A stretch of DNA of 64,000 bases from a virus (Duplodnaviria > Caudoviricetes). Positions 38,332-62,962 of this stretch are shown here, one piece after another. The notes beneath the pieces are model-generated. The model worked only from the letters and a program-made list of their open reading frames with translations, was not told where the DNA came from and ran no database searches. Each line of letters begins with the position of its first letter. The first letter of the stretch is position 1. The stretch is taken from positions 15,611 to 79,610 of the IMG/VR virus record IMGVR_UViG_2936072512_000001, one strand, 5' to 3'. The translations under genes and the position numbers were made by a program.

Positions 38332-38488
38332 CCTCCCTGATCGTCCGCCCCGCCTACTCCGCGGGGCGGGCCCGCTCCGCGCCCCCGTCCCCGTGGGCGC
38401 GTCGAGCGCGGCTGTGGCCGCGCGCCGTTGAGGGGCGGCGCGCGGCCACAACGCAAGCCCCACCCATCGGAACAGCGTGAGGAGCCAC

Positions 38489-38956: not shown

Positions 38957-38957
38957 C

Positions 38958-39416
38958 ATGGCCAAGGCGGGTTACACGATCCAGGCGCCGTGGACGGCCG
39001 TCCCTGCCGGTGGCGCCGGTAAGACGCTGCTGCAGGTGACGCTCCCGTCCTCGTTCGGGCTGGAGATCAAGAAGATCCGGGTCGGGCTCAACGGCACCTC
39101 GGCCACGGCGGTGCCCGGCATCATCGACCTCATCGCCGCGACCGCGGCGGGGGCGAGCGTCACCAGCGCGACCGTGCAGCAGGTGTACGGCAGGACCATC
39201 GCGCACGGACTGACCGCCCAGCACACGCTGACGGGCGAGCCGACCGGCATCAGCGTGCTGGACCCGTGGCCGCTCTCGCCGAACGGCGGCCTGGTCCTGT
39301 ACGACTGGCCGCTCGGCGACAGCCCCGACTTCGCCCCGTCGTCGATCTTCGGTATCCGCGCGACGTTCCCGGCGGCGGTGTCGGCGATGGTCACTCTGTG
39401 GGTCGAGCGCATCTAG
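38958..39416 (+). CDS. Putative virion structural protein (insert gene 2)
   Basis: Small-residue, beta-rich; 1 bp after the previous stop. Confidence 0.65.
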   Translation: MAKAGYTIQAPWTAVPAGGAGKTLLQVTLPSSFGLEIKKIRVGLNGTSATAVPGIIDLIAATAAGASVTSATVQQVYGRTIAHGLTAQHTLTGEPTGISVLDPWPLSPNGGLVLYDWPLGDSPDFAPSSIFGIRATFPAAVSAMVTLWVERI

Positions 39417-40123
39417 GGCAGATAGCCCCAGTCGCGTGCGACCGGCCGCAGCAGCTCCGGCACAAGGTCAGGGGCCGGTAGCGGGCGAGGCGGCTGGACA
39501 GCGCCGGTGCGGATCTTGTCGCGCCAGTCTCCCAGGCCGCGCGGCCACTCGCTGTGGCGCGGCCCGTAGTGGAGCATGGCCGGCTCGAAGTCGACGCCGA
39601 GGAAGCCGCACACGTCCTGCAGCACCGCTTCCGGATCTGCGGTCAGCTGCTCGTACCGGACTGTCCAGCCTGGCAGGGCGGCGCGGGCGTCGGAGACGGC
39701 GTCCATGCAGCCGCGCAGGTATCGGGCAGAGGCGGCGGGGCCGTGCCGGGTGGCTTCCAGCCACGAGGTGAGCACGCTGCCCGGGTGCCGCAGCAGGAAG
39801 ATCCAGCGGGCATCGGGCCAGCAGGAGGCCAGCCGCCGCCAGTGCGGCACGTCCGTGGGGCTCTTGTGCACCAGCGTGGCCTTGCCCGACCGGGCGAGCA
39901 GCTGGTGCGCCAGCTGGTCCCACAGCAGGTAGTCCAGCTCGTCCTGTCCGCCGAGGTCGCCGAGCGCCAGCCGCGCGGGCGGGGACGCGGCGGCGGAAAT
40001 CTTGGCCAGCGGGATCTCGTGCGGGGCGTGCAGGCGGCTGTGGCCGCCGAGTACGGCACGCAGCAGCGTGGACCCTGACCGGGGGGCGCAGGCCACGATG
40101 ACCGGCTCCTTCACCAGACGCAC
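39413..40123 (-). CDS. PAPS-dependent sulfotransferase (Sulfotransfer_3-like)
   Basis: 5'-PSB loop VACAPRSGSTLL, HKSP, 3'-PB FLLRHPGSVLTSW, VRYEQLTADPE..CGFLGV; likely GTG start at 40123 (ORF open to 40162). Confidence 0.88.
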   Translation of the reverse strand: MRLVKEPVIVACAPRSGSTLLRAVLGGHSRLHAPHEIPLAKISAAASPPARLALGDLGGQDELDYLLWDQLAHQLLARSGKATLVHKSPTDVPHWRRLASCWPDARWIFLLRHPGSVLTSWLEATRHGPAASARYLRGCMDAVSDARAALPGWTVRYEQLTADPEAVLQDVCGFLGVDFEPAMLHYGPRHSEWPRGLGDWRDKIRTGAVQPPRPLPAPDLVPELLRPVARDWGYLP

Positions 40124-40176
40124 CGACGCCTTCTTCGACCAGCCCCGAGCCTCGCTGTTCATCTGAGGAGGTTACG

Positions 40177-40881
40177 GTGCCCGTCGAGGTTGATCCGTCG
40201 CTGCCGCTCGTGGCCACCGCGTACGACGCCCTGTCGGTCGGGCCGTTCAACACCCCCGCGGGGGCTCTCCTCGTCGTGGGGTTCGCCGGGTACGGGTCGT
40301 CGACCCCGCTGGCCGACGGCGTCACCTTCACCCTCCAGCAAGAGTCCCCGCTGTGGACGTACGCCCAGCTCTGGACGGCTCCGCTGACCGCAGCACGGAC
40401 CGGGCTCGAGATCGAGATGCCCGCAGCGGAGATGGTCGGCGGGATGAAGGTATGGGTCGTGACCGGCCAGGCCTCCCCGGTGGCCGTGGGCCAGGGCGGC
40501 AGCGGGTCGCTGACGACCAACAACGCGACCGTCACCGGCTACAACAGCAGCAGGGCCGGAACGCTCGGCCTGGCCGTTGGCTACGAGGACGACCAAGTCG
40601 CCGAGACCGCGACGCCAACCACCTCCACCGACATCTTCGACCGCTACTACAAATCTGACCTTCACGGCCCGGGTGTCCCCGGGTCGGCTCTGTTCCTGCA
40701 CAAGGCGGCGCCTGCGACGGCGGCCGGGCAGGCGGTCACGTTCAACCTGAACGCCCCCGGCACGGCCGCTGCCGACTGGCATTGGGCCGCGATCGAAATC
40801 CTCAACGCGCCCGACGCGCCCTCGCCGCCGCGCATCGTGCACGCGGCCCGCGCTGCAACGCACCGAGCATCGAGTTGGTAG
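40177..40881 (+). CDS. Beta-rich putative virion adhesin, paralog of 58313-59023
   Basis: GAGGAGG RBS; ends RAATHRASSW. Confidence 0.7.
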   Translation: MPVEVDPSLPLVATAYDALSVGPFNTPAGALLVVGFAGYGSSTPLADGVTFTLQQESPLWTYAQLWTAPLTAARTGLEIEMPAAEMVGGMKVWVVTGQASPVAVGQGGSGSLTTNNATVTGYNSSRAGTLGLAVGYEDDQVAETATPTTSTDIFDRYYKSDLHGPGVPGSALFLHKAAPATAAGQAVTFNLNAPGTAAADWHWAAIEILNAPDAPSPPRIVHAARAATHRASSW

Positions 40882-40893
40882 CGGAGGTGAGCG

Positions 40894-41913
40894 ATGGCCC
40901 GCCCAGGGCGTAGCTATCCCAACCGGCCCGTCATCGTCCGACCCCTCGCCGCACCGGTGGCGCGACAAGCCGTCGAGACCGACTCGGCCACCGCCTTCAC
41001 CTTCGCCCGCGGCCGGTACGCGCACCAGGTGGAAGAGCACGACACCGCTCACCCGATCGCGGCGGCCAAGGTCGTGCCGGTCGGCAAGGCGTTGGAGTCG
41101 ACGGAGCCCGGCCACGTCTCGCCCGTCAAGGCGGGCCTGGTCAAGCAGGCCAGCGAGACCGACACCGCCTCCACCACCGACGCCCGCAAGCGGGTTCTGG
41201 TCGGCCGCGCCGACGAGCACGACAGCGCCGGCATCATCCGGGCCAAGGCCCGCCTCTACACCGCGGTGCAGGCCGACATGGCGTTGCCGATCACCCCGGT
41301 CAAGGCGCAGACGATCGGCCGCGCCATCGACATGACGCTGCCGCGCCCCATCCGGGCCGCCAAGCAGCAGCTGGTCCGAACGGCGGCCGAGTCTGCGGCC
41401 AGCTGGCCGATCGAGGCGAACAAGTCCGCCTTCGTCGGCTTGGCCGTCGAGCACTCCTCCGGCGCCTCGATCTTCGTGGGCGCGTCCCTCGTTGTCGTCG
41501 TCGGCCGCGCCGACGAGATCACCCTTGCAGGCCGTATCGGGCGCGTCTGGCCGCTGCTGCGTGTCGGGCGGCCCAGGCGCTCGTGGGCGGCCCGCCTTCA
41601 TGCGAGAGGAGCCGGTGGCGTGCAGCCGATCAGCAGCCTGTCTCGGGAGTACGTGTGGCTGTACGTCGAGGGGGCCTCCGGCGCTGAGCCGGTCGAGGTC
41701 GCCTTCACCGTGCCCGGCGTCGAGCCGGCCGAAGGCCAGTGGCATGACGCCGAGTGGAGCGGCCGAACTCTGGAGGGCGCGCACGCCCGCGTCCGGGTCG
41801 GCCCAGGCCCTGACGCTGTCGCCTTGGCCGAAGGCACCTGGCAGGCGTGGGTGCGCGTCACCCGCCCCGACATCGAGCCCGTCCTGCCGTCCGGCCTCGT
41901 CCCCATCATCTGA
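40894..41913 (+). CDS. Fibre-like protein with about ten ~20-aa repeats and a C-terminal beta domain
   Basis: Repeats such as VGRADEHDSA / VKQASETDTA / VGKALESTEP; GGAGGTGA RBS. Confidence 0.65.
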   Translation: MARPGRSYPNRPVIVRPLAAPVARQAVETDSATAFTFARGRYAHQVEEHDTAHPIAAAKVVPVGKALESTEPGHVSPVKAGLVKQASETDTASTTDARKRVLVGRADEHDSAGIIRAKARLYTAVQADMALPITPVKAQTIGRAIDMTLPRPIRAAKQQLVRTAAESAASWPIEANKSAFVGLAVEHSSGASIFVGASLVVVVGRADEITLAGRIGRVWPLLRVGRPRRSWAARLHARGAGGVQPISSLSREYVWLYVEGASGAEPVEVAFTVPGVEPAEGQWHDAEWSGRTLEGAHARVRVGPGPDAVALAEGTWQAWVRVTRPDIEPVLPSGLVPII

Positions 41914-41973
41914 CCATCGAGAGGGCCGACGTGTCCGCCCAGTTCAACGCACTGCCCACGGGGGAGGGATGCC

Positions 41974-43539
41974 ATGCCGCTGCCTGAGCGTGACATGGAG
42001 TGGCCGCCTCCGAAGATCAAGCCCGAGATGCACCAGTACGAGATCCACGGCGCGTGGTACTCGGGAGACCCTGAACGGCTCGCGAAGGTGTACGGCGGAG
42101 CATTCGGCAGCCCGGCCTACGGCCTGGACGCCAAGGGCTGGGACCGTCCGCAGGTCAACCCGCTCGGCCTGTGGGGGCGGGTCACGTCGATGTTCTGGGC
42201 GCGCAAGCAGCTGCCCGGCCAGACGTTCACCCCGAAGCTGCACGTCCCGGTCGCCGGAGACATCGCCTCCACCAGCGCCGACCTGCTGTTCGCCGAGCCG
42301 CCGACGCTGCGCGTGCAGGGTGAGGACTCGCAGACCCGCCTGGAGAAGATCCTCGAAGAGGGCGGCGTGTACGGCGTCCTGCTCGAAGGGGCCGAGCTCG
42401 GCGCCGGGTACGGCGGCGTGTACGTGCGCGTCGGCTACAACACCGACGTCGCCGACTACCCGATCGTCGACCTCGTGCCCGCCGACGCCGGCGTGCCCGA
42501 GTTCGCCAACGGCCGGCTGAAGGCGGTCACGTTCTGGCGGGTGCTGGAAGACGACCACAAGACGGTCTGGCGGCACCTGGAGCGGCACGAGTCTGGTCGC
42601 GTCTTCCACGGCCTGTACAAGGGCACTGAGGACCGTCTCGGTGACGCGCAGCCGCTCGCCGACCATCCGGAGACCGCTGACTTCGCCAAGCTGGTCGACG
42701 CGGCGGGCGGGTTCGACACCGGATACAAGGGGCTGCTCGTCTCCTACGTGCCGAACATGCGTCCTCACCGGACGCTGCGCGGCACCAGTTTGGGCCGCTC
42801 CGACTACGCCGGGGTTGAGCAGCTCATGGACAGCCTCGACGAGGTCTACACGTCCTGGATGCGCGACATCCGGCTCGGCAAGGGCCGCGTCTTCCTGCCC
42901 GAGGTGTACCTGGAGAACCGGGGCCGCGGCCAGGGCGCGTCGTTCGACCCGGACCGCGAGTTCTTCTCCGGGTTGGGCATGCTGCCGTCGCCGAACAACG
43001 CGGGCAGCATGATCACGATCTCGCAGTTCGACATCCGCGTGGCCGAGCACAAGGAGTCGGCCAAGTCGCTGCTGGCGCAGATCCTGCGCGGCGCCGGGTA
43101 CTCGATGCAGTCGTTCGGCGAGGACGACAACGCCGGGCAGGCGGCGACCGCGACCGAGATGCACATGCGCCGCCACAAGTCGTACACGACCCGCGGCCGG
43201 AAGACCGGCTACTGGACGCCGACGCTGGCGTGGCTGACGGACTGCCTGCTGACGGTCGACCAGAAGGTGTTCAACTCGAAGGTCGTCGCCGCCCGCGCCC
43301 AGGTCGAATGGCCGGACGGCGTCATGCCGGACCCGGAGGCGATGGCCCGCACGCTCGACTTCCTGAACCGGGCACAGGTCGCCTCCCTGGAGACGAAGAT
43401 CCGCATGCTGCACCCCGAGTGGGACGACACGCAGGTGCGCGAGGAGACCAAGCGGCTGCGCGCCGAGCTCGGCGTGCTCGTCGAAGACCCGGCCAAGCTG
43501 CGCGAAACCTACATCCCCGACGCTCCCAAGGCAGCCTGA
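41974..43539 (+). CDS. Portal protein (SPP1 gp6/A118-like)
   Basis: LHVPVAGDIASTSADLLFAE, GRSDYAG..DSLDEVYTSWMRDIRLGK, TATE; 521 aa. Confidence 0.92.
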   Translation: MPLPERDMEWPPPKIKPEMHQYEIHGAWYSGDPERLAKVYGGAFGSPAYGLDAKGWDRPQVNPLGLWGRVTSMFWARKQLPGQTFTPKLHVPVAGDIASTSADLLFAEPPTLRVQGEDSQTRLEKILEEGGVYGVLLEGAELGAGYGGVYVRVGYNTDVADYPIVDLVPADAGVPEFANGRLKAVTFWRVLEDDHKTVWRHLERHESGRVFHGLYKGTEDRLGDAQPLADHPETADFAKLVDAAGGFDTGYKGLLVSYVPNMRPHRTLRGTSLGRSDYAGVEQLMDSLDEVYTSWMRDIRLGKGRVFLPEVYLENRGRGQGASFDPDREFFSGLGMLPSPNNAGSMITISQFDIRVAEHKESAKSLLAQILRGAGYSMQSFGEDDNAGQAATATEMHMRRHKSYTTRGRKTGYWTPTLAWLTDCLLTVDQKVFNSKVVAARAQVEWPDGVMPDPEAMARTLDFLNRAQVASLETKIRMLHPEWDDTQVREETKRLRAELGVLVEDPAKLRETYIPDAPKAA

Positions 43540-49784: not shown

Positions 49785-50183
49785 ATGGTGAAGCGCACCT
49801 TCAAGGAGGGCGTCCCGGCCGCGCAGATCAACGCCGCGGTGAAGGCGGCGGCGGTGCGCGGGCTGCGCCTGGCAGGCAAGCACCTGGTGAAGGCGGCCCG
49901 TGACCGGGTGCCGCTCGACCAAGGCACCCTGGAGCGCTCGATCAAGGAGTCGGTGGACGAGACCCGGCTGATCGGCGCGGTGTCGGCCGACACGCCGTAC
50001 GCGCTGATCCAGCACGAGGTGCCGCCACCTCCGGACACCGACGAGAAGGGCCGCAGCTACACCCACGACCCCGGCCGCACCTGGAAGTACCTGGAGGAGC
50101 CGCACCGCGAGCAGGCGACGGTGATGCGCGACATCATCGCCGCCCAGCTCAAGAAGGTGCTGTTCGGAAAGGGGGGCCTGTGA
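49785..50183 (+). CDS. HK97 gp10-like neck/tail-completion protein
   Basis: VPLDQGTLERS..DTPYALIQHE..KYLE. Confidence 0.8.
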   Translation: MVKRTFKEGVPAAQINAAVKAAAVRGLRLAGKHLVKAARDRVPLDQGTLERSIKESVDETRLIGAVSADTPYALIQHEVPPPPDTDEKGRSYTHDPGRTWKYLEEPHREQATVMRDIIAAQLKKVLFGKGGL

Positions 50184-50626
50184 GCTTCTCCCTGGACCTG
50201 CTCACCGGCCTGCACGAGGTGCTGGCCGACGCAGGCGTCGGCCACTGGAACCCGTCCGGGATCTACACCGCCAACCAGGTCGGTCTCACGATCGGCGGCC
50301 TGCCGCCCAGCCCGGACCGGGCGATCTCAGCGGCGGTGTACGGCACGGGCCGGGCCGGTGACGACATCGCCGAACCCGACTCCAGCATGCAGGTGCAGTT
50401 CCGCATCCGCGGCACCGGCGACCCACGCACCGTCGACGACCTGGCGGACGGGCTGTTCGACACGCTGCACGGCGCATCCGACGTGGTCCTGCCCACGGGC
50501 GTGCTGCTGCTGCTCGCCTCCCGCAAGATCGTCGCCCCGCTCGACAAGGACTCCAACGGCCGCCACCTGCGCGCCGACTCCTACGAGCTGCTGGTGCACC
50601 GGCCCAGCCCGCACCGGCCCGCCTGA
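50180..50626 (+). CDS. Tail terminator (minor capsid 3-like)
   Basis: LPPSPDRAI..VQFRIRG..DKDSNGRH. Confidence 0.78.
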   Translation: MSFSLDLLTGLHEVLADAGVGHWNPSGIYTANQVGLTIGGLPPSPDRAISAAVYGTGRAGDDIAEPDSSMQVQFRIRGTGDPRTVDDLADGLFDTLHGASDVVLPTGVLLLLASRKIVAPLDKDSNGRHLRADSYELLVHRPSPHRPA

Positions 50627-50667: not shown

Positions 50668-50692
50668 ATCCCGCATGCCACAGGAGGCACGT

Positions 50693-51160
50693 ATGGCGCT
50701 GCGCAGCATGCTCGCCAAGGACTGGACCCTGGAGATCAACACCGGCACCACGGCGTCGCCGACGTGGACCACCGTCAAGGGCCTCACCAAGATGGGCTTC
50801 GAGATCGAGTCGGAGACCGAGGACGACTCCGACTTCGACAGCGACGGCTGGGGCTCCGACGTCGTCACCCAGCGCAAGTACAAGCTGACCGTCGAAGGCC
50901 GCCGCAAGCGCGACGCCGCCAGCGCCGGGTTCGTCCCCGACGCCGGCCAGGAGGCGCTGCGGACCGCGGGACTCGTGGTCGGCCTGGAGGCCTCCGCCGA
51001 GGTGCGCTGGTACCGCAAGGACGGCTCCCCGGACGCCTTCACCGGCACCGTCGCCGTCCAGTACAAGGGCGGCGGCGGCGAGACGACCGACCTCGAGCCG
51101 TTCGAGGCCGAGCTGTCCGGCCAGGGCAAGCCCGTCGCGATCACGAACCCGGCGGCCTGA
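50693..51160 (+). CDS. Major tail (tube) protein
   Basis: AGGAGG RBS; DDSDFDSDGW..VTQRK..GQEALR..VRWY..LSGQGKP. Confidence 0.85.
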   Translation: MALRSMLAKDWTLEINTGTTASPTWTTVKGLTKMGFEIESETEDDSDFDSDGWGSDVVTQRKYKLTVEGRRKRDAASAGFVPDAGQEALRTAGLVVGLEASAEVRWYRKDGSPDAFTGTVAVQYKGGGGETTDLEPFEAELSGQGKPVAITNPAA

Positions 51161-51164
51161 CCTG

Positions 51165-51563
51165 ATGGTGAAGCTGAAGGAACTCGACGACTTCCTTGAC
51201 GACGGCCTTGAGCTGCCGATCAAGGGCAAGACGTACCTGGTGCCGCCCGCCTCCGCCGAGGTGGGCCTGTACTGCCAGCGGCTGGCCGAGGTCGGCATGG
51301 CCGCCGCCAAGGGCCAGCAGGACGAAGGCGCGGCCGAGCTCGACGACGCCCGCGAGTCGGAGCTGTACCGCAAGTGCCTGGGCCCGGTCCTGGACGAGAT
51401 GGTCGCGGACGGCGTCTCGTGGCCGCGCATCAAGCACGCCGCGATCACCGCGTTCTTCTGGATCGCCGGTAACGACGAGGCCGCCGCGACCTTCTGGGAG
51501 CGAGGCCCGGAAGCAGCAGCCCCGGAAGCGACGAAGGGTCGGGCGGCGAGCTCGACGAGCTGA
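51165..51563 (+). CDS. Tail assembly chaperone (gpG-like)
   Basis: Between tube and tape measure; LELPIKGKTY..LGPVLDEMVADGV. Confidence 0.8.
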   Translation: MVKLKELDDFLDDGLELPIKGKTYLVPPASAEVGLYCQRLAEVGMAAAKGQQDEGAAELDDARESELYRKCLGPVLDEMVADGVSWPRIKHAAITAFFWIAGNDEAAATFWERGPEAAAPEATKGRAASSTS

Positions 51564-51835
51564 CGGGGCTCCGCGACTGGTACGACCCCGACGACGGCTT
51601 GACCGTCGACGGGACCGCCGTCACCTGGGGTGCGCTGCTGGAGCGCTGGTCGCTGATCGAGTGCGACCTGCACGCCGAGTACGGCATCGACCTGGACGAG
51701 CCCGGCCTGCTGCAGCAGCGCCGCTGGCGGTGGCTGCGCACCCGCATCCTCGGCCTGCTCGCCCGCGATTCGAGCATCTCCCGCGCGCTCACTCCCGACG
51801 ACCGCAAGCACTCCGGAGGTGAGCCGTGGCGCTGA
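51506..51835 (+). CDS. Tail assembly chaperone -1 frame extension (gpT-like)
   Basis: -1 frame open from 51473; WSLIECDLHAEYGIDL..WRWLRTRILGLL; C-CCG-GAA at 51506 and 51521. Confidence 0.7.
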   Translation, partial: PGSSSPGSDEGSGGELDELTGLRDWYDPDDGLTVDGTAVTWGALLERWSLIECDLHAEYGIDLDEPGLLQQRRWRWLRTRILGLLARDSSISRALTPDDRKHSGGEPWR

Positions 51836-54381
51836 AGATCGGCGAGCTGTACGCGACGCTGGAGCTGCGCAACCAGCTGACCACCCCGCTGGGCAAGGCC
51901 GTCGCAGGCGTCAAGGTGCAGGCGACCGGCATCCACGCCGCCATGGCCATGGTCGGCATCACCGCCGTGAAGGCGCTGGGCAGCCTGGCCTCCGGCGCCG
52001 TCCGCGCGGGCGGGGCGATGGTGTCCGCAGGCGCGAAGATCGCCTCTGCGGGCGCGAAGTCCGGCGCGCTCCTGGCCGGGATCGGCGCGGCCGGTGTGGC
52101 CGCGGGCGGCCTGCTGTCGATGGCGTTCGCCGGTGCGGTCGCCGGAATCGCCATGATCGGCATCAAGGCCGCCGCCCAGTCGGCGCAGGTGAAGGCGGCC
52201 TTCGCCGACATGAAGGCCTCCATCCAGGCCGACCTGGCGAACGCGGCGTCGGTGCTGGAGCAGCCGCTCGCGCAGGCGGCCGGGTCGGTGAAGGGCCTGT
52301 TCTCCTCGCAGATCGCGCCCGCCCTGCAGGGCATGTTCACCTCGATCGCTCCGCTGATCGGCGAGTTCACGGCCGGTCTCGGCGACTTCCTGGGGCCGAT
52401 GCTGCCCGCCATCCAGGGCATCGTCGGCGCGGTCGTGCCGATGTTCTCCCAGCTGGCGGGAAGCATGGGCGTCTTCGGTGGCCAGCTGGCCGCCTTCCTG
52501 GCTCCGCTGTCGGCCGCGATGGCGTCCAACAGCGGCCTCATCGCCACCTTGATCACCGGCATCGGCGGACTCCTCGCCGCGCTCGGACCGCTGCTGGCCG
52601 CGTTCCTGCAGCTGGCCGGGCAGGTCGCCGGGCCGCTGTTCGCCGGGCTGCAGCAGATCGCCGCGGCGTTGTCGACGCACCTGGCGCCGGTGCTGGTCCA
52701 GCTCGGTCCGCTGATCGGTCAGCTGATCGGCCAGTTCGCGCAGATCGCCGTCGCCTTGATCCCGCTGCTGCCGCCCTTCCTGCAGTTGGCCGCCACCCTG
52801 GCCAGCGCGCTCATGCCGGTCCTGACGTTGATCGTCCAGGCGCTGGCTACCGCCCTGCAGCCCATCCTGGTGGCGCTGCAGCCGGTCCTGGCCGCCCTCG
52901 GCGAAGTGTTTTCGCAGGTCGTCATGGCTTTGATGCCGATCCTGCCGCCGATCTCGCAGCTGATCACGTCGCTGCTGCCGGTCGTGGTCACCCTGGTCAA
53001 GTCGCTGACCCCGATCCTGACCATGCTCGCGAACGTCTTCGCCAAGGTCGTCGGCGCGGTGACGCCGTTCCTGCCGCCGCTGGTCAAGCTCGGCACGAGC
53101 GTCCTGCCGCTGATCATGGGCGTCCTCGACGCTTTCGTGAAGCTGCTGTCCGGCGACGTGTCCGGAGCCTTCGAGACGATCAAGAAGGCTGTCTCCACCT
53201 TCGTGACCGGCATCAAGGAGAACTTCAACAAGCTCCTCGACCTCGGCTCCGAGCTGGTCAACGGGATCAAGAACGGCATCGCCAAGCTGTGGAACGGCTT
53301 TATGGCGTGGGTGAAGGAGAAGTTCGGCCAGCTGCCCCAGTGGGTCAAGGACATCTTCGGCATCGCGTCGCCGTCGAAGGTGATGGCCGACATCGGCGGC
53401 AACGTCATCAAGGGCCTCATCGTTGGCATGACCGGCGAAGAGTCCACGATCCGCGACACCACGAAGAGGCTCGCCGACACCGTCCTGGCCGCGTTCAAGG
53501 ACGGCAAGATCAGCAAGGGCGTCAAGGACGGCCTGGTCGAGATGATCCGGGCAGGCAACCGTGACCTGCTCGCGCTGGCCGCCGAGCGGGAGAAGTTCGT
53601 CGAGCGGATGAAGTCCGTCGCCGACGCGATGAAGTCGTTCGCGAACCTGACCAGCCTCGACTTCGGCACCAACGAGCAGGGGCAGAAGAACGCGCCCACG
53701 GCGGGCGGCATCCAGGCCGGGCTGCAGGCCAAGCTCGCCCAGGTCCGCGCCTTCGCCTCCGTCATCAAGAAGCTCGCCAAGCGCGGCCTCAACAAGGCGC
53801 TGCTCGCCCAGATCATCGAGGCCGGGCCCGAGGCCGGCACGGAGCTCGGCCGGGCGCTGCTGGAGGCCGACGCCTCCACCTTCAAGTCGATCAACAACAC
53901 GCAGGCCTCCATCGACAAGGCCGCCAAGCAGGCCGGGAAGAACGCCGCCGCCGCCCTGTTCGAGGCGGGCAAGAACGGCGGCGCGGGCTTTTTGAAGGGT
54001 CTGCTGAACAACAAGAAGGACATCGAGAAGGCGATGCTCGACATCGCCAAGTCGATGGTCGCGGCCATCAAGAAGGGCCTGAAGATCAAGTCGCCGTCGC
54101 AGGTGATGGCCGGGCTGGGCGTGCAGGCGATGGCCGGACTCCAGCGCGGACTCATCGCCGGGACGGCGCCGGTTCTGGCCGCCGCCCGCTCGGTGGCCAC
54201 CGCGCTTCCCGGGGCGATGGCCTCCGACCTCGGCGTCGGCAGCACCGGTTACCGGGTGACGCCGAAGGGCGGGTCCGCGCCGGTCACGGTGAACGTCACC
54301 AACCACTACCCGCAGGCCGAGCCGACCAGCAAGACGGTGAACAAGGGCCTGCAGTACGCGGCGATCCTCGGCCTGACCTGA
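51826..54381 (+). CDS. Tape measure protein 1
   Basis: 851 aa; MALKIGELYATL; amphipathic L/P repeats; GIASPSKVM and KIKSPSQVM. Confidence 0.9.
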   Translation: MALKIGELYATLELRNQLTTPLGKAVAGVKVQATGIHAAMAMVGITAVKALGSLASGAVRAGGAMVSAGAKIASAGAKSGALLAGIGAAGVAAGGLLSMAFAGAVAGIAMIGIKAAAQSAQVKAAFADMKASIQADLANAASVLEQPLAQAAGSVKGLFSSQIAPALQGMFTSIAPLIGEFTAGLGDFLGPMLPAIQGIVGAVVPMFSQLAGSMGVFGGQLAAFLAPLSAAMASNSGLIATLITGIGGLLAALGPLLAAFLQLAGQVAGPLFAGLQQIAAALSTHLAPVLVQLGPLIGQLIGQFAQIAVALIPLLPPFLQLAATLASALMPVLTLIVQALATALQPILVALQPVLAALGEVFSQVVMALMPILPPISQLITSLLPVVVTLVKSLTPILTMLANVFAKVVGAVTPFLPPLVKLGTSVLPLIMGVLDAFVKLLSGDVSGAFETIKKAVSTFVTGIKENFNKLLDLGSELVNGIKNGIAKLWNGFMAWVKEKFGQLPQWVKDIFGIASPSKVMADIGGNVIKGLIVGMTGEESTIRDTTKRLADTVLAAFKDGKISKGVKDGLVEMIRAGNRDLLALAAEREKFVERMKSVADAMKSFANLTSLDFGTNEQGQKNAPTAGGIQAGLQAKLAQVRAFASVIKKLAKRGLNKALLAQIIEAGPEAGTELGRALLEADASTFKSINNTQASIDKAAKQAGKNAAAALFEAGKNGGAGFLKGLLNNKKDIEKAMLDIAKSMVAAIKKGLKIKSPSQVMAGLGVQAMAGLQRGLIAGTAPVLAAARSVATALPGAMASDLGVGSTGYRVTPKGGSAPVTVNVTNHYPQAEPTSKTVNKGLQYAAILGLT

Positions 54382-54389
54382 CCGCCCGC

Positions 54390-54653
54390 TCACCGCTTCC
54401 CACCGCGGGGGGCGGGCGGCTCCGGCCGATTCGCGATCCAGCGCAACAGCCGGAAGATCCGCTCGACAGTCTCGTCGGAGCCGAACAGCAGGCACCCGAT
54501 GATCACGATCACCAGGGCGAGTTCGACGCACACGACAACTACGCCGATCGGGTGCAGGAGGGCCAGCCCCGTCGGCGCGAGAGTGGCAGCCCCAACCGTG
54601 ACCGGCTTGGCGACTGCCGCGATGTTGAGTTTTCCCTGCTGCTTGGGTCCCAT
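54390..54653 (-). CDS. Small membrane moron protein
   Basis: TM segments; ERIFRLLRWIANRPEPP; lower GC3. Confidence 0.6.
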   Translation of the reverse strand: MGPKQQGKLNIAAVAKPVTVGAATLAPTGLALLHPIGVVVVCVELALVIVIIGCLLFGSDETVERIFRLLRWIANRPEPPAPRGGKR

Positions 54654-54798
54654 CCTCGGACACCCCGAAGGGCGACCTCAGCCGCCGAAGCCATGAGAGT
54701 GCAGCTACTCCCAACAGCGTGCTGTACGTGGTGATTTGCCCCCGAGCAGCCATACCAAACCCTCTCGACCCGTCCCGTGCTGAAGGGGAGGTCGAGGC

Positions 54799-57006
54799 GT
54801 GGCGATCAACGTGGGCCAGCTGTTCGCCACCATCGAGCTGCGCGACCAGCTCACGCTGCGGCTCGCGGCCACCCTGCTGGGCCTGCGCCGCGCCGAGTCC
54901 ACGATCGGGCGGCGCACCAGCCGCATCGACAACCAGTTCGTGCGCCTGGCCGCCTCAGTCACCGCCTCGGGCGCGGCCATGGCGGTCGGCATCACCGCCT
55001 CGGCCGCGCGGATCGGGGTGGGGCTGGCCAGCTCGGCCGCGAAGGTGTCGCTGTTCGGAGCGGCGGCGGCCGGGGCGACGCACGCGGTGCTCGCGCTCGG
55101 CGCCGGGCTGGCTCCGCTCGCGGGCGGCCTGGCGGCGGTGCCGGGCGCGGTCGCGCTCAGCGTCGCCGGGTTCGGGGCGCTCGGCCTGGCCCTGTACGGC
55201 ATCGCGGATGCGACCTCGGCCGCGTTCGGTGACGACCAGGACAAGCTCGACAAGGCGCTGGCGAAGCTGTCGCAGTCCGCCCGGGCGGCCATCCTGGAGG
55301 TGCGCGAGCTGCGGCCCGCGCTCGACGGCGTACGGCTCGCCTCGCAGGAGGCGTTCTTCGGCCAGCTCGCCGGCGCGGTGACCGCGCTCGCCGCCGCGCT
55401 GCTGGGGCCGCTGCATGCCGGGCTGTCGGGGGTCGCCTCCGACCTGGGGGCGGCGGCGCGCTCGGTGGTCGACTTCGTCCGCTCCTCCGACTCGGTGCGC
55501 GCGGTCGAGCAGGTTTTCGCCTCGACCAGGCACACGATCATCGCCCTGTCTCAGGCGCTGTGGCCGCTTCTGGGCGGTTTTCGCGACCTGACCGTGGTAG
55601 GCGCACAGTTCACCGCGTCGCTCGCCCCAGAGATCGCTCAGGCGCTTGCCCGCGTCGGGGTGTTCCTGTCGCAGGCTTCGGCTGACGGCCGGGCGTGGGC
55701 GTGGATGGTCGCCGCGGTGGAGACGCTGCGGCAGCTCGGCCGTATCGCGCTCGACGTGTGGCAGATCCTGTCGGGGCTGTTTGAGGCGATGCGTACGGCA
55801 GGCGGTGACGCCCTCGGCGTGCTCGGGGCGCTGGTGTCGTCGGTGGCCGACTTCGTCACCTCCGACGCCGGGCAGCAGGCGCTCGTCGCCGTGTTCGTCG
55901 CCCTGGCCCAGGCCGGTCAGGCGCTCGGGCCGGTGCTGGCCGCGCTCGTGGTCGGGGTCGGCCAGCTCGCGCCCGCCCTGGGCGGCCTTGCCTTGATTGT
56001 CGGCCCGATCCTGACCTCGGCGATTCAGGCTGTGGTGCCTGCGCTGGCGTCGCTGGAGCCCGGCATCGTCGCGATCTTGTCGGCGGTCGGGCGCGCGGTG
56101 GAGGTCCTCGGCCCGTCGCTGACGCTGCTCGGTGAGGCCGTCGCCGCGGCGATGGTGGCCGCGTCGCCGTTCGTCGACGAGCTGGCCGCCGCGATCGTCG
56201 CGCTGATGCCCGGCCTGATCGCGGTCGTCGTCAACGTCGGCCAGGTGTTCGCGGCGCTTGCGCCCGCCCTGGAGCCGGTCGGCACCGCCTTGGCGCAGAT
56301 CATGGTGGAGCTGGCTCCGCTGCTGCCCACGCTGGCCGACCTCGCGGCCCTGATCGTCACCCAGCTCGCCCCGTACGTGGTCGACCTGGCCAGCGTGCTG
56401 GCGGATCTGCTGCTGTCGGTCGCTCCGCTCCTGCCGCCGCTGCTGGACCTGGTGACCATGGTGTTGCCGCCGATGCTGGACCTGCTGCGCTCGATCGCGA
56501 CGCTGCTGCGCGGCGACTTCGCCTCAGCGCTCGGCTTCGCCGACCAGGCCGTGCTCGGCTTCCTGCGCGTCGTCGACAATCTCGGCTGGGCGCTGCTGAC
56601 CGGCCTGTGGAACGGGCTGGTCGCAGGCTATGACTGGATCAAGTCGCAGATCATCGGCTTCTTCTCCTCGATCCTGCCGGACTGGGTCCGGCAGGCGCTC
56701 GGCATCCAGTCGCCGAGCCGCGTGTTCGCCCAGATCGGCCGGTACACGATGCTCGGCCTGCGTGACGGCATGCTGGCCGGGCAGCGCCCGGTCCTGCAGG
56801 CGGCGCAGCGCATCTCCGACCGGCTGTCGGGCTCGTTCTCGCCCGACCTGTCGGGATCGGTCGCCTCCACGGGCGCACGGCTGTCGGCGCCGGGCCGCGG
56901 CCCGACGATGATCTTTCACGTGACGGCGGTCAACCCGCTGCCGGAGACCACGTCCGAGACGGTCAATCGAGGCCTGCAGATGGCCGGGGCTCTCGGCGTC
57001 GCCTAA
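54799..57006 (+). CDS. Tape measure-like protein 2
   Basis: 735 aa; GGAGG RBS; MAINVGQLFATIELRDQLT; ALGIQSPSRVF; C-terminus matches TMP1. Confidence 0.85.
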   Translation: MAINVGQLFATIELRDQLTLRLAATLLGLRRAESTIGRRTSRIDNQFVRLAASVTASGAAMAVGITASAARIGVGLASSAAKVSLFGAAAAGATHAVLALGAGLAPLAGGLAAVPGAVALSVAGFGALGLALYGIADATSAAFGDDQDKLDKALAKLSQSARAAILEVRELRPALDGVRLASQEAFFGQLAGAVTALAAALLGPLHAGLSGVASDLGAAARSVVDFVRSSDSVRAVEQVFASTRHTIIALSQALWPLLGGFRDLTVVGAQFTASLAPEIAQALARVGVFLSQASADGRAWAWMVAAVETLRQLGRIALDVWQILSGLFEAMRTAGGDALGVLGALVSSVADFVTSDAGQQALVAVFVALAQAGQALGPVLAALVVGVGQLAPALGGLALIVGPILTSAIQAVVPALASLEPGIVAILSAVGRAVEVLGPSLTLLGEAVAAAMVAASPFVDELAAAIVALMPGLIAVVVNVGQVFAALAPALEPVGTALAQIMVELAPLLPTLADLAALIVTQLAPYVVDLASVLADLLLSVAPLLPPLLDLVTMVLPPMLDLLRSIATLLRGDFASALGFADQAVLGFLRVVDNLGWALLTGLWNGLVAGYDWIKSQIIGFFSSILPDWVRQALGIQSPSRVFAQIGRYTMLGLRDGMLAGQRPVLQAAQRISDRLSGSFSPDLSGSVASTGARLSAPGRGPTMIFHVTAVNPLPETTSETVNRGLQMAGALGVA

Positions 57007-57337
57007 CCGGGCGGGCGCCGTCAGCCGGCCCGAGCCACCGGTAGATGAGGTCGCGCGACAACCCGGAGTTGGCGATGATCGCCTCCTTCGACACCGTGGG
57101 CCCCTTGCCGCGGCCCGCCGTGCCGGGCGTGCGGTGAGCGGCTTCGGCGGCGGCCTTCAGCCAGCGCATGACCTCCTGCTCCTGGCGGCGGGCGGCCTCG
57201 AGGTCGTCGCCGAGCAGCCGGAGGACCTCCAGCGCGGCGGCCTCGTCGGGGAAGTCGAAGATCGGTTCTTCGACCCAGCTCACCGAGTCGCTGTCGCCGT
57301 ACAGGTCGTCGGGGCCGGTGATGTGCCGGGGTTGCAT
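56963..57337 (-). CDS. Small HTH-like moron protein
   Basis: GGAGG RBS; SKEAIIANSGLSRDLIYRWL; upstream TAGACA-N18-TAACGT promoter-like sequence. Confidence 0.65.
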   Translation of the reverse strand: MQPRHITGPDDLYGDSDSVSWVEEPIFDFPDEAAALEVLRLLGDDLEAARRQEQEVMRWLKAAAEAAHRTPGTAGRGKGPTVSKEAIIANSGLSRDLIYRWLGPADGARPVRRRREPRPSAGLD

Positions 57338-57430
57338 GCCCGCCTCCACGAAGGTGTCTGACGGCGTACACGTTAGATGCCCGGGGCCATACCTGTCTAC
57401 TCGCAGACATCTTTCACCCTGGGGGTGGTT

Positions 57431-58300
57431 GTGCCGACGTACATCCTCGACGGCGTCGAGCTCGACCACCCGTCAGGCTGCTGGAAGCTCGCCCCCGGCA
57501 CCCGGCGTCGCCCGCTGCCGGGCGTGCGCTCAGTCGAGCTCACCCTGCCCGGCAGGGCGGGCGAGGTGCCCATCATGGGCCTGGACCACGAGACCACCCA
57601 GTTCGCCCTGGAGTTCAAGATCACGTCGCGGACCCCGTCCGGGGGCGACGGCGGGTTCGAGCAGCTGGAGGCCAACCTGGAGGCGCTGTCGGCGCTGCTC
57701 GGGGTCCGCCACCGGCTGATGACCCTGGAGTACGTGGCGGGCACCCTCACCCGGGTCGCCCAGGTGACCGTCACCGCCACCTCCGAGCCCGACCTGAAGA
57801 TCGGAGCGCTGCGCGCCCGCCTGACCGCCGTCGTCCGCGTCCCCGGCGTCTACTGGCGCGACGAGATCGAATCCACCTGGACCGGCAGCGCGAACACCGC
57901 CGACCAGCCGGTGACAACTCTCGCCGGCAGTACGGCGCCGGTCACGGACGCGCTGATCCGCTACACCGGCCCGGCCGTGACGCCCACGCTGGTCGACGTG
58001 GCCACCGGCGACACCATCAGCCGCGCCTCGGGCCTGCTCGCCTCCGAACGGCTCATCATCGACTGCGCCGCGATGCGCGCCAGCAAGGTCACCACCGACA
58101 CCTGGGACATCAACGCCGGTACGGACGTGACCGGCTCCATCATCGCCACCGGCCCCGGCTCGGCGTTCCGCTGGCTGAACCTCACCCCGGCGATGGCCGT
58201 GGGCGACCCGCACTCGCGCGCCGTCCTGCTGACGACGTCGGCCACTTCGACCACGGGCGCATCCAAGGTCGAGGTCCGCGCGCGCCGCGCCTACCTGTGA
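57431..58300 (+). CDS. Distal tail (Dit-like) protein
   Basis: After tape measure; LPGRAG, PGVYWRD, GSTAPVTDA, ends RRAYL. Confidence 0.8.
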   Translation: MPTYILDGVELDHPSGCWKLAPGTRRRPLPGVRSVELTLPGRAGEVPIMGLDHETTQFALEFKITSRTPSGGDGGFEQLEANLEALSALLGVRHRLMTLEYVAGTLTRVAQVTVTATSEPDLKIGALRARLTAVVRVPGVYWRDEIESTWTGSANTADQPVTTLAGSTAPVTDALIRYTGPAVTPTLVDVATGDTISRASGLLASERLIIDCAAMRASKVTTDTWDINAGTDVTGSIIATGPGSAFRWLNLTPAMAVGDPHSRAVLLTTSATSTTGASKVEVRARRAYL

Positions 58301-58312
58301 TCTGGAGCGCGA

Positions 58313-59023
58313 ATGATCACGATGCTGACGTCGCCGTCCCTGGTCTCCGCCATGACCACCACCGGCGTGAGCACGGCCTCCTTCGCTCCTCCCGAAGGGG
58401 CGTTCCTGGTGGCGTGCGTGATGAGCAAGTACGACGCGTCGGTGGCGCTGACCAACACCGGGTCGGCGCTTTCGTGGACCATGCGAGCCCAGTCGATCAA
58501 CTCCAATGGCATCGCAGCCATCTACACCGCGCCCGCCATCGCCCAGTCCATGACCGTCACCGGCACCATGGACTTCATCGGCAGTCCCGGCAACTCGCAA
58601 GGCATCGCGCTCAAGGTCAACGTGCTGGGCGGCGTCGACATCAGCAACCCCATCGGCGCGACCGGCGACGTGACCAGCTTGGGCGTGCAGAACTGGACGT
58701 TCAACGCCTACACCTCCACCAAGGCCGATTCGTGGGGGTTCTGCGCCGCAGCCGACGACTACCAGACCGCCACCCCGACCTCCACCGACGTCAACGAGCC
58801 GTTCAACCAGTCGGGCGCCGGCTACCTGTCCGGCATGGCGATGCGCAAGGCCTCCGCGACCGCCTCAGCGGGCACGGCGGTGAGCTTCAACATCCAGACG
58901 GGCGGCGTGTCGACGAGCACCCGCTGGGCGACCTGCGCGGTGGAGGTCCTCGCCGCCGTCGACGGCCTTGGGCACCGCGCCACCTTGTCCAGGGCGGCCG
59001 TCCATCGCGCGGCAGCGTGGTGA
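58313..59023 (+). CDS. Beta-rich putative virion adhesin, paralog of 40177-40881
   Basis: Collinear similarity; ends RAAVHRAAAW. Confidence 0.7.
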   Translation: MITMLTSPSLVSAMTTTGVSTASFAPPEGAFLVACVMSKYDASVALTNTGSALSWTMRAQSINSNGIAAIYTAPAIAQSMTVTGTMDFIGSPGNSQGIALKVNVLGGVDISNPIGATGDVTSLGVQNWTFNAYTSTKADSWGFCAAADDYQTATPTSTDVNEPFNQSGAGYLSGMAMRKASATASAGTAVSFNIQTGGVSTSTRWATCAVEVLAAVDGLGHRATLSRAAVHRAAAW

Positions 59024-60003: not shown

Positions 60004-60229
60004 CTTCAATCACCCCCCTTCTCGACCGCTTGTTGATCACATGCGCGGCCGTAGCAAATAACCCTACCTTTCTTTTCATCGCCTGCAACCTGCCGGGCCT
60101 CTTCGGCCGAATTCGCTCGGACGCGGAGATCACTAATACGGGCAGTTCTGCGCAGGCGGCACGGGTCAATGGCGCTGACCTGACGTAGGCCCCTTGATCG
60201 CCCAGAGGCATGAAGGGGGTACTGTCTCG

Positions 60230-62962
60230 ATGCTTGTGTTGCGGTTGGCGATCTACGAGCCGAACGGCACCCGGACCGGCGTGCTGCCGTACCCGCTCGG
60301 GCTGCAGGTGGCGCAGCCGCTCAACGACGTGCCCGCGCTCCGCCTGACGTTCTCGGCGGCGGCCGGGACGCAGCTGGCGGGCGGGCCGTGCGAGGTCGGT
60401 GTCGAGTGGAGCGACGACGACGGCCAGACCTGGACCGAGGCCTACGACGGCCGGTTCGTGTCCATCAAGCGGCGCTCCGAGCTCGCCGACCGCGCCGCCG
60501 TGCAGGCGCTGGAGTTGCCCGGCTACGTGTGGCTGCTGCGCAAGATGCTGCTCTACCTGGGCAGCGCCGACCTCGTCGATGGCAAGCGTCCGTTCCTGTC
60601 GGCCACGCCTGGGTCGATCCTGCAGACGATGTTGCAGGAAGGGCAGGCGCGCGGCGTGCTGCCCGAGCTCGACTGGGACTTCTCGCCCACCCTCGACTCG
60701 GGCGGCCTGGCCTGGGCCAAGGTGCTCACCATCTACTACGAGCCCGGCATCGATGCCCTCACCATGCTCATCAACCTCGCCGAGCAGGGCGTCCTCGACT
60801 TCCGCATGACCGGCCGCACCCTGCAGGTGTTCAACGCCGACAGCATGCTCAACCGCAACCTGACCACGCTCGACCCGGCCGTCGACCTGCGCCTGGGCCG
60901 CGAGGTCGTCGAAGCGCCGGACGAAGGCACGTGGGAGGACACCGCCAACGCCGTGCTGGTGACCGGCGACCAGGGCATCGCCCAGCAGTGGGTCGACGCT
61001 GGTAACCCGTCGCCGTGGGGCCGGTGGGAGATCCACGTCGGCCAGGGTGGCGTGTCCGACCCGGTCACCATGGGCGTGCTCGCCCAGGCGACGCTGGCCC
61101 GCTCCGCGCGGGAGAAGGTGCAGCGCACCCGCGGGCTCCTCCTCGGACCGCAGGCCCGGTTCGCGCCGTGGCGCGACTTCCGGCCCGGTGACACCCTGTC
61201 GGCGCCCGGCGAGGCCGGCCTGCAGCAGGCGCTGCGCGTCCGCCAGGTCACCGTGACCCGCGACGACAAGGGCGTGCTCGGCGGCTCCGTCGTCCTGCAC
61301 GACCGCTTTCTCGACCGCGCGGTACGGCTCGCCCGGCGCACGCAGGGCATCCTCGGCGGGTCGACCGCGTCCGGAGGAACCGGAGCGAGGCCTGCGCCGC
61401 CCGCGCCCGCGCCGCGCACCCCGGCCGCTCCGACCGGCCTGGTCGTCGACGCCGACGCCTACCTGGATGAGCACGGCTACGCCCGCGGCCTCGTGGTGGC
61501 GACGTGGGGCGCGGTCACGCAGGACATCGGCGGGGTGGCGCTGGACCCGGACGGCTACGAGCTGTTCGCCCGCCGCGACGTGCCCGGACAGCCGTGGTTT
61601 CTGCTGGCGGCCACGCAGGCAGGCGACACCGACGCCGCGCGCGGCCCGCTGCCGGTGGGGGAGTCGTGGGCGTTCAAGGTGCGCGCCGTCTACCTGGGCA
61701 AGAAGTCGGCGTTCTCGTCCGTGGTGACCGTGGCCATCCCCGACGACCCGGACGCGCCGCCCACGCCGTCGACGCCCGGCCTCGAGTCACGGCTCGGCGT
61801 CGTGCACGTCGCATGGGACGGGCTCGGCTCGCTCGGCGAGGGCATGCCGGCCGACTTCTCGCACGTGATCGTGGAGATGCAGGACCCACTCGCGCCCGGC
61901 TGGGCGCCGGTCGGGACGCTCCCGGCCGCGGGCGCGCTGGTGGTGCCCGGCCTGCCGTACGGCTCCGACCGCGACTTCCGACTGATCAGCGTGGACCACT
62001 CCGGCAACACCTCAGCGGCCTCGGCCGTCGCGACGATCGCCGCGGTGCAGCTGGTGTCCGGCGACGCGGCAGCCTCCTCGATCCAGACCGGGCACCTGGC
62101 GGCCAACGCCGTCACCGCCGACAAGATCGCCGCAGGGCAGGTGACCGCCGCCAAGCTCGAAGCCGTGATGACGCTCACCACGCGCCTGGTCGCCGGCGAC
62201 CCGGGCGCCGCGCGGGTCGAGCTGAACGCGGGCGGCCTGGAGGCCTTCGACGCGGGCGGCATGCAGACCGTCGACATCTCCTCCACCGGGCAGGTGTCGA
62301 TCGTCGGCAGCCTGGCCTCGGGCGTGGCCGGTGACCGTGTCCTGATCAACCCGCCCGGCTCGCCGTTCCCGGAGATCCGGTTCATCCCGTCATCGGCGAC
62401 GACCAACTACTCCAAGATCTACTCCAACGCGCTCACCTACCCCGGCGAGGCGACCATGGTCATGGAGTCCGGCGTGAACACCGGGGGCACGGCGGTCACG
62501 CAGGTCGTGCACGCCGCCTCGGAGTACCGGGTGTGGGTGCTGCGCCCGTCCGACCACGCCCAGCGCGGCGCATACCTGAGGCTCGATGAGGGCCAGGCGC
62601 TGCTGGGCTGGACGCACCCGACGAACGGCACCCAGCAGCTGCGCATCTCGGAGGCGTCGACCTCCCACCTGGGCAGGTGGACGCACGCCTCCAACAGCAA
62701 CGCCGGGCTGATCATGTTCGAGGCGACGGTGACGCGCGGCGCGACCTACTACGTGGTGTCGTGGCCCGCGACGATGGCGTCCACCCCGCACATGGTGTGG
62801 TCGGCGCGCGTCGGCGCGGCGGCTCCGTTCGCGCAGGCGCCCACGGACCTGCACCTGTACACGCGCAACACGGTCAACGCGCAGTTCTACTCGCCGACCG
62901 CCGCGGCGTCGGGCACTCCGCCGACGATCACGTTCACGATCTGGGCCTGGCGGCCCGCGTAG
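60230..62962 (+). CDS. Tail tip / Tal-hub protein 1 with FN3-like domains
   Basis: GAAGGGGG RBS, ATG at 60230; hub-like N-terminus, PAAPTGL / PPTPSTP FN3 starts, LAANAVTADKIAAG repeats. Confidence 0.85.
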   Translation: MLVLRLAIYEPNGTRTGVLPYPLGLQVAQPLNDVPALRLTFSAAAGTQLAGGPCEVGVEWSDDDGQTWTEAYDGRFVSIKRRSELADRAAVQALELPGYVWLLRKMLLYLGSADLVDGKRPFLSATPGSILQTMLQEGQARGVLPELDWDFSPTLDSGGLAWAKVLTIYYEPGIDALTMLINLAEQGVLDFRMTGRTLQVFNADSMLNRNLTTLDPAVDLRLGREVVEAPDEGTWEDTANAVLVTGDQGIAQQWVDAGNPSPWGRWEIHVGQGGVSDPVTMGVLAQATLARSAREKVQRTRGLLLGPQARFAPWRDFRPGDTLSAPGEAGLQQALRVRQVTVTRDDKGVLGGSVVLHDRFLDRAVRLARRTQGILGGSTASGGTGARPAPPAPAPRTPAAPTGLVVDADAYLDEHGYARGLVVATWGAVTQDIGGVALDPDGYELFARRDVPGQPWFLLAATQAGDTDAARGPLPVGESWAFKVRAVYLGKKSAFSSVVTVAIPDDPDAPPTPSTPGLESRLGVVHVAWDGLGSLGEGMPADFSHVIVEMQDPLAPGWAPVGTLPAAGALVVPGLPYGSDRDFRLISVDHSGNTSAASAVATIAAVQLVSGDAAASSIQTGHLAANAVTADKIAAGQVTAAKLEAVMTLTTRLVAGDPGAARVELNAGGLEAFDAGGMQTVDISSTGQVSIVGSLASGVAGDRVLINPPGSPFPEIRFIPSSATTNYSKIYSNALTYPGEATMVMESGVNTGGTAVTQVVHAASEYRVWVLRPSDHAQRGAYLRLDEGQALLGWTHPTNGTQQLRISEASTSHLGRWTHASNSNAGLIMFEATVTRGATYYVVSWPATMASTPHMVWSARVGAAAPFAQAPTDLHLYTRNTVNAQFYSPTAAASGTPPTITFTIWAWRPA

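Follow-up and report, generated by a model that had tools for sequence, protein, structure and literature searches.

The siphovirus tape measure protein (TMP) is the standard example of a ruler made of one protein, with one gene, one trimer, and one tail length. In the stretch of phage DNA considered here (64,000 nt, hereafter the window; positions 15,611 to 79,610 of the IMG/VR record IMGVR_UViG_2936072512_000001, Caudoviricetes), two such genes stand one behind the other on the + strand, copy A (TMP1, 851 aa) at 51826–54381 and copy B (TMP2, 735 aa) at 54799–57006, both of them beginning with GTG. A first-pass annotation, made from the letters of the DNA, had described them as two intact, divergent TMP genes in tandem, each with its own ribosome binding site (RBS), and this description stands, as both open reading frames (ORFs) are found as described and are preceded by Shine-Dalgarno-like sites: TMP1 has GGAGG at a distance of 6 nt upstream, and TMP2 has GGGAGG at 7 nt. 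The GC content at third codon positions (GC3) is 0.96 in TMP1 and 0.94 in TMP2, and that of the neighbouring phage genes is alike.

Compared directly with BLASTP, the two proteins are 31% identical along a stretch of about 310 residues (E 9e-22), and their last 130 residues are 37% identical (E 4e-19); when the families to which they belong are compared profile to profile with hhalign, the match reaches a probability of 100% and an E-value of 6e-96 over 559 columns at 24% identity, in an alignment that is collinear from residue 1 through the SPS module. By these alignments TMP1 and TMP2 are full-length, collinear paralogs. Position, homology, and architecture together identify both as tape measures: 15 of the 22 PHROG families matched by TMP1 are annotated as TMP (a 16th as “tail protein”), as are 14 of the 15 matched by TMP2, with best TMP-family E-values of 7.5e-38 and 1.2e-58, respectively. 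The PDB chains named tape measure protein that the pair matches are those of 6v8i, 8zdo, and 9j1k (FtbJ), each of these three sequences being present as three chains per entry, and residues 604–715 of TMP2 match residues 1005–1121 of the 1154 of 80alpha gp57. No Pfam TMP family, PhageMin_Tail (PF10145) included, was listed for either protein at E-values up to 0.1, and the unrelated Baculo_PEP_C appears below threshold, at 20.5 and 16 bits for a cut-off of 38.

The layout is common to both proteins. It begins with a motif of some 16 residues at the N-terminus, continues with a strongly hydrophobic segment around residue 100 (about 79–117 in TMP1 and 96–136 in TMP2; segments with a hydropathy of at least 1.6 are found in both proteins) and a long uncharged helical region (235–443 and 361–557), and closes with an amphipathic region that bears the SPS motif, then a coil, and a terminal helix, predicted at 835–850 in TMP1 and 720–734 in TMP2. 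The matching N-terminal strings, the GIxSPSxV motif, and the matching C-terminal strings that had been read in the two translations are all present in both ORFs. There are two SPS modules in TMP1 (at about residues 515 and 756) and one in TMP2 (about 638), and TMP1 has an extra charged helical module at about 560–750, rich in lysine, which ends in the second SPS motif. The AlphaFold2 models, as assigned by DSSP, are nearly all helix in both cases, at low confidence (mean pLDDT 42.8 and 50.3), and no enzymatic or globular domain is found in either protein by Pfam or in these almost wholly helical models. Both protein ends are invariant within each TMP family, and the C-terminal signatures are fixed, L842, Q843, Y844, A845, G849, and L850 in A, and G725, L726, A729, G733, and V734 in B. 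The C-terminal module, conserved in both, resembles the C-terminal region of 80alpha gp57, and it is predicted that in both proteins the C-terminal SPS module and the terminal helix probably serve as anchors in the tail tip.

Among the A copies, a module of about 240 aa with the second SPS motif is found in the long forms (window, L057, L060, and L061) and is missing from the short ones (638–684 aa), and since it is present in some and not in others, it would have been gained or lost as a unit; the forms of 1147–1250 aa have additional N-terminal sequence. The GC content is 0.659 at 53001–54000 (the extra module lying at about 53500–54100) and 0.70–0.75 in most nearby segments.

Occurrence, origin, and selection

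A genus-wide search with TMP1 showed neighbouring TMP-like frames in several genomes and gave a first sample of 13 regions, all of them with the order chaperone, A, B, and distal tail protein (Dit). As this sample had been picked by TMP similarity it was biased, and the count was therefore repeated with the tail assembly chaperone as anchor in a collection of one genome per species, where hidden Markov models of the A and B families were run against all + strand ORFs of 150 aa or more at the anchored loci. Two TMP ORFs are present in 16 of the 54 loci obtained, one in 37, and none in 1, which is cut at the chaperone, so that 53 loci are informative. The pair is intact in 15 of the 16, namely in 13 Nonomuraea (which include all 13 regions of the first sample), 1 Spongiactinospora, and 1 Streptosporangium, these being the three host genera of the lineage with the duplicated TMP; and the order chaperone, T frame (the −1 frame extension of the chaperone), A, B, Dit is kept in the window and in 15 of 15 of these relatives, with A adjoining the T frame and B adjoining Dit. 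In IMG/VR, the same anchor yielded 41 loci, 15 of them exact duplicates, with four further intact pairs (L117, L120, L121, and L126), which brings the distinct intact pairs, the window included, to 20.

The first-pass annotation had proposed that related prophages be searched for a conserved double-TMP layout, and the answer is positive (15 intact loci and 4 from IMG/VR); the opposite case that it had envisaged, in which the other copy is absent or decayed, is seen in only 2 of the 17 members of the lineage in the genome collection. One of these, L057, has a single full-length A-type TMP of 858 aa directly before Dit, and has lost B. In the other, L053 (the same as L114, 10614–14531), the pair is decayed: A is internally deleted, with residues 1–35 joined to 438–850 and its ends in frame, B is frameshifted before the C-terminal module, and an unrelated ORF of 186 aa lies between them. 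A-type TMP also stands alone in L118, from IMG/VR, with 1250 aa; a fusion of A and B was considered here and ruled out, as this protein aligns throughout with the long A forms.

Between A and B the intact relatives of the genome collection have a gap of 33–137 nt with no gene in it. The end of B mostly meets the start of Dit in the relatives, or overlaps it, to within a few bases, and the single TMP of sister prophages is placed likewise. Such gaps, together with an RBS for each copy, fit co-expression of A and B from one operon. In one sub-clade (L055, L056, and L059, corresponding to L043–L045) A and B are in frame and separated by one TGA and 33 nt, so that read-through would yield a fusion of about 1340 aa; as a general mechanism, however, stop-codon read-through is ruled out, because the gaps of the other pairs are 36–137 nt long and their frames vary. 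The lengths of the proteins are 638–1148 aa for A and 675–808 aa for B, with an A/B ratio of 0.85–1.51; in three relatives the copies measure 653 and 675 aa, and other pairs are very unequal (1148 and 760 aa, or 928 and 760 aa).

The sister prophages of Nonomuraea, Sphaerisporangium, Thermocatellispora, and Streptomyces (L062–L102) have the same tube protein, DUF7426 chaperone, and Dit, and at the Streptosporangiaceae loci also the 900-aa tail protein and the same N- and C-terminal TMP motifs, but they differ in having one TMP directly between the chaperone and Dit. These single TMPs measure 744–791 aa in Streptosporangiaceae and about 689–808 aa in Streptomyces. Among isolated phages, the TMP matches have at most about 32% identity; phiSAJS1 (with two matching places) and Mischief19 have one annotated TMP each in the region covered, and Eklok and FireCastle, which have the DUF7426 chaperone in common with the window, have one TMP each. 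In one single-TMP sub-lineage (L093, L127, and L152, at about 10640–11390) an ORF of 228–235 aa lies between the T frame of the chaperone and the TMP. In three genomes, a prophage with the TMP pair resides alongside a related one that has a single TMP (L052/L067, L058/L063, and L053/L072), and the contig of L052 is, by its title, an unlocalised plasmid sequence.

In a TMP tree of 67 rows, rooted on the Streptomyces singles, one clade (SH-aLRT 95) takes in 16 of 16 A copies, 16 of 16 B copies, and L057, and leaves out the 19 single TMPs from Streptosporangiaceae. Inside the clade, the window-type B copies (9 rows) are sister to a group that unites a 732-aa B type (7 rows) with all A copies (support 100), and the identity of A and B within a locus is 30–38% where B is of the window type and 43–48% where it is of the 732-aa type; this grouping and these two ranges together suggest that the copies later exchanged sequence, or that duplication took place a second time. 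In an independent tree of Dit (40 rows), a branch (support 97) divides 18 double loci and L057 from 21 singles, a pattern that needs two changes, one gain and one loss. As L057 is nested among the doubles with an A-type TMP before Dit, its B would have been lost secondarily, and the trees thus indicate a single origin of the pair and one later loss of copy B.

The ratio of nonsynonymous to synonymous substitution (dN/dS, omega), which the first-pass annotation had recommended for each copy, was obtained with NG86, a simple estimator applied here at extreme GC3 to 21 close pairs from three sub-clades that share history, and it is 0.15–0.31 for copy A and 0.10–0.43 for copy B, with Dit (0.10–0.33, 14 pairs) and the tube protein (0.09–0.35, 18 pairs) as yardsticks. 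On these values (0.10–0.43 for the two copies over the 21 pairs) both TMPs are under purifying selection similar to that of Dit and the tube protein.

Such selection on both copies bears on the supposition that one of them is non-functional or that the layout itself is spurious, whether as an artefact of assembly, as a duplicate in decay, or as a place where two different prophages meet. The decayed pair of L053 shows the second of these outcomes in a relative, and the source genome is a draft of 10.5 Mb in 53 contigs, with an estimated contamination of 8.38%, the window lying on one contig. However, both ORFs are intact here, with a GC3 of 0.94–0.96, and the layout is intact in 19 other prophages; a second assembler gives an identical 7.4 kb, in a contig of 22,295 nt that covers 51000–58400 with 0 differences and even depth (this contig is probably from the source sample and is therefore not independent data); and there are no other phage genes between the chaperone and Dit, the flanking tail genes being collinear with those of single-TMP relatives. 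The synteny with relatives rules out a second prophage or a mosaic junction, and the supposition as a whole is hardly credible.

The lengths and profiles of the two families could also be read as a division of labour, in which one copy is the ruler and the other is a TMP-derived protein with another task, for example an ejected protein for penetration of the membrane or wall, or an assembly factor; in one variant, B would be the ancestral ruler and A a derived accessory. B does keep the length of the ancestral single TMP (675–808 aa) as well as its profile, since the single TMPs of the same bacterial family score 600–665 bits with the B profile and 111–238 with that of A, whereas A is far more variable (638–1148 aa) and gains or loses modules, such as the one of about 240 aa with the second SPS motif and the N-terminal extensions, and the fixed C-terminal signatures of A and B are different. 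Yet it is the derived copy A that is the lone survivor in L057, directly before Dit, every recognisable feature of a TMP is kept from end to end in both copies, and no enzymatic or globular domain was found in A or B. A division of labour, in its general form and in the variant alike, is improbable.

The surrounding tail module and the reverse-strand insertions

Judged by their sequences, the tail genes of the window are a standard siphovirus tail module, and the element is a temperate siphovirus-type prophage of a soil actinomycete. Upstream of this module lie the genes of the large terminase (36814–38331), the portal (41974–43539), a MuF-like protein, and the major capsid protein; terminase and portal are split by about 3.6 kb (38331–41974) that hold five ORFs, one of them on the reverse strand, which is an unusual break in a packaging module. 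The tail terminator (50180–50626) and the major tail (tube) protein (50675–51160, +; phrog_3884, major tail protein, E 3.6e-48, with Pfam Phage_tail_2 below threshold) are followed by the G-like tail assembly chaperone of the DUF7426 family (51165–51563, +; PF24201, E 2.4e-45; phrog_3860, E 2.4e-30), the sole chaperone gene for both TMPs. Its T-like extension (51599–51835, +; phrog_13398, E 7.8e-25), which is in frame −1 with respect to the G-like ORF, overlaps the start of TMP1 by 10 nt. The T frame is open from 51473 and thus overlaps the end of the G-like ORF (51473–51563), in agreement with a −1 frameshift, but a canonical XXXYYYZ slip site was looked for in this overlap and not found.

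After the TMP pair comes the Dit-like gene (57431–58300, +; phrog_33, Dit, E 5.4e-8), whose ORF is open from 57377, with alternative GTG starts at 57425 and 57431, and with which the relatives align from residues 15–21; its product has 62–75% identity to that of the gene directly after the TMP in relatives. Two small ORFs separate it from the gene of a large tail protein of 922 aa (60194–62962, +; phrog_31834, E 1.5e-25, and phrog_38009, E 9.9e-24, both tail protein), which has 51–57% identity in relatives and is found downstream in those with a single TMP as well as in those with two. An ORF of 236 aa has no PADLOC, Pfam, or PHROG match, and one of 178 aa has weak matches alone (phrog_27939, E 0.0042, and DUF6132 below the cut-off). 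A search for promoters and terminators in 54300–57600 gave 0 sites with a sigma-70 consensus of the E. coli type, which is uninformative for actinomycetes.

The first-pass annotation had also placed a reverse-strand moron after each TMP gene. Both ORFs exist, and they are real genes, but, on the comparison with relatives, they are local insertions outside the conserved design, as 0 of the 15 intact relatives have a gene between the TMPs. The first (54390–54653, −) is placed between the TMP genes in this prophage and in none of the relatives, and encodes a small membrane protein of 87 aa with one strong transmembrane helix (hydropathy peak of 3.2 at residues 38–56). Of 109 other genomes of the host genus, 15 have homologs of it, with 30–52% identity. 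The second, at the junction of TMP-B and Dit (−), extends from 56963 to 57337 if it begins at the ATG there (124 aa), or to 57469 in its longer form (168 aa); the start at 57337, which has its own GGAGG, is the more likely. A homolog with 52% identity occupies the same TMP-B/Dit junction in one relative (L044/L056), so that the insertion site would have been used twice or inherited, and a second homolog is found elsewhere. At this junction, L061 has a gap of 513 nt. Neither the 87-aa ORF nor the 124/168-aa ORF has a Pfam, PHROG, or PADLOC match. In position and type, the 87-aa gene can be likened to that of HK97 gp15, described in PMC3594210 as an exclusion moron, whose gene, likewise for a small membrane protein, stands in the tail operon beside the TMP gene; the likeness is a lead only, the orientation here is reversed, and an exclusion function for the 87-aa protein is pure conjecture.

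Possible uses of two tape measures

In the siphovirus tail, as it is described in PMC11445458, the lumen holds a trimer of the TMP whose C-terminal helices are anchored in the baseplate core, polymerisation of the tube takes place around the TMP, and the TMP, once ejected, forms the channel for the DNA; tail length amounts to about 0.15 nm per TMP residue, as applied in PMC3556154. The TMPs of the window have much in common with lambda gpH, 80alpha gp57 (PDB 6v8i), JBD30 gp46, and T5 pb2: they occupy the same slot between the G/GT chaperones and Dit, they are also long, helical, and hydrophobic, with a C-terminal module and helix, predicted here to anchor in the tip, whose fold is presented as conserved in PMC11445458, and they have direct sequence matches to 80alpha gp57 and to two other solved TMPs. 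The difference is that lambda, 80alpha, JBD30, and T5 encode one TMP each, and that here two full-length paralogs are retained together.

The reading that we prefer, with a probability of roughly 0.6, is that an old tandem duplication of the TMP gene arose once in temperate siphovirus-type prophages of Streptosporangiaceae, has been kept since, and supplies two proteins that are both loaded in tails. As both copies are intact, old, and kept in at least 19 related prophages, both are probably in use; and as both keep the N-terminal motif and the C-terminal module, both probably load into tails. That they would do so by the same machinery is suggested by three circumstances: (i) both assembly ends have been kept under selection; (ii) there is one chaperone pair; (iii) and there is one Dit. 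A single G/GT pair would then chaperone both A and B, both would enter the tail-tip initiator, and both would end in the tail lumen of the virion, to be ejected at infection. What is said here of their presence in virions, their stoichiometry, and their effect on tail length we infer from the sequences.

How the two proteins would be combined is a more tentative matter. The proposal, for which we would put the chances a little below even, is of a lumen built with two TMP chains, either as mixed trimers with a fixed A:B composition, acting as a heteromeric ruler and channel, or as two kinds of virion whose TMPs differ in their routes of membrane entry and in the TMP-directed defences that they escape; the first-pass annotation had named two virion types or a heteromeric ruler as well. 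Mixed A/B trimers in one tail seem somewhat more likely than separate homotrimers, and they agree with the tight co-expression and with the paralog-specific termini.

Several points weigh against the preferred reading. The lengths of A and B are unmatched (ratio 0.85–1.51), which is awkward for a mixed trimer that has to act as one ruler; A can stand alone, as in L057, and a single B-like TMP of 744–791 aa is enough for the sister lineages, so that neither copy is obviously indispensable to the design of the tail; the dN/dS figures are simple NG86 values at extreme GC3 from non-independent pairs; and the structure models of the TMPs are of low confidence (mean pLDDT 42.8 and 50.3).

Unmatched lengths would be no problem if A and B were alternative rulers, each tail having a homotrimer of one or the other, so that one genome would produce two classes of virion as a form of bet-hedging, with tails of about 128 and about 110 nm in this phage (at 0.15 nm per residue) and possibly with a different entry route or a different sensitivity to defences directed at the TMP. 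The assembly ends are indeed common to both copies and the central hydrophobic region has strongly diverged (24% over the 559 columns; 30–38% within a locus of the window's sub-type); the type of TMP correlates with the inner-membrane entry factor, and SNIPE, Tab, and exclusion proteins target TMPs, according to PMC13190303, PMC10884400, and PMC3594210; and competition between phages is plausible, since three genomes hold a double-TMP prophage together with a single-TMP relative. However, the pairs of 653 and 675 aa in three relatives, which differ by 22 residues alone, would differ by about 3 nm in tail length, so that length dimorphism cannot be the conserved benefit; nothing here favours homotrimers over mixed trimers, and no entry factor is known for the phages of these hosts. 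On balance, alternative rulers are unlikely. The ratio of 851:735 that the first-pass annotation had predicted for two populations of tails would apply to this phage alone, given the spread of the A/B ratio (0.85–1.51) across relatives.

A known system close to this one is the tandem-repeat expansion of TMPs treated by Belcaid et al. (2011; PMC3271669), in which repeat units of 11 to 44 residues multiply within one gene. The extra module of TMP1 with its second SPS motif resembles these internal repeats, and duplication is the known route of change in TMPs; but in the window, unlike the repeats described there, it is a whole gene with its start, its stop, and both assembly ends that has been doubled and kept as two genes. 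Among the matches listed, no paper describes a phage with more than one TMP gene, in a search outside which most subscription journals lay, so that absence from print is unproven; the matches consulted concern chaperones, homologs, a draft frameshift, and internal repeats. For phage G, the published description has one TMP gene. The stable co-retention of two full-length TMP paralogs is a departure from every described system that was found.

This departure raises the question of how tail length is set when there are two rulers, and whether the trimer in the lumen can be heteromeric; it also raises the question of whether the TMP has diversified because it is at the same time a device for membrane entry and something that the defences of hosts and prophages attack by preference. 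As the prophages reside in cultured, non-pathogenic strains, including type-collection Nonomuraea endophytica, N. longicatena, N. cavernae, N. bangladeshensis, and N. fuscirosea, and as natural controls are at hand in the A-only relative, the single-TMP sisters, and the near-equal and very unequal pairs, these matters are directly testable, and the single-TMP sister lineages date the duplication. If the interpretation is true, a heteromeric ruler, or two kinds of virion from one genome, would be a mode of tail construction or of bet-hedging that has not been shown for any phage.

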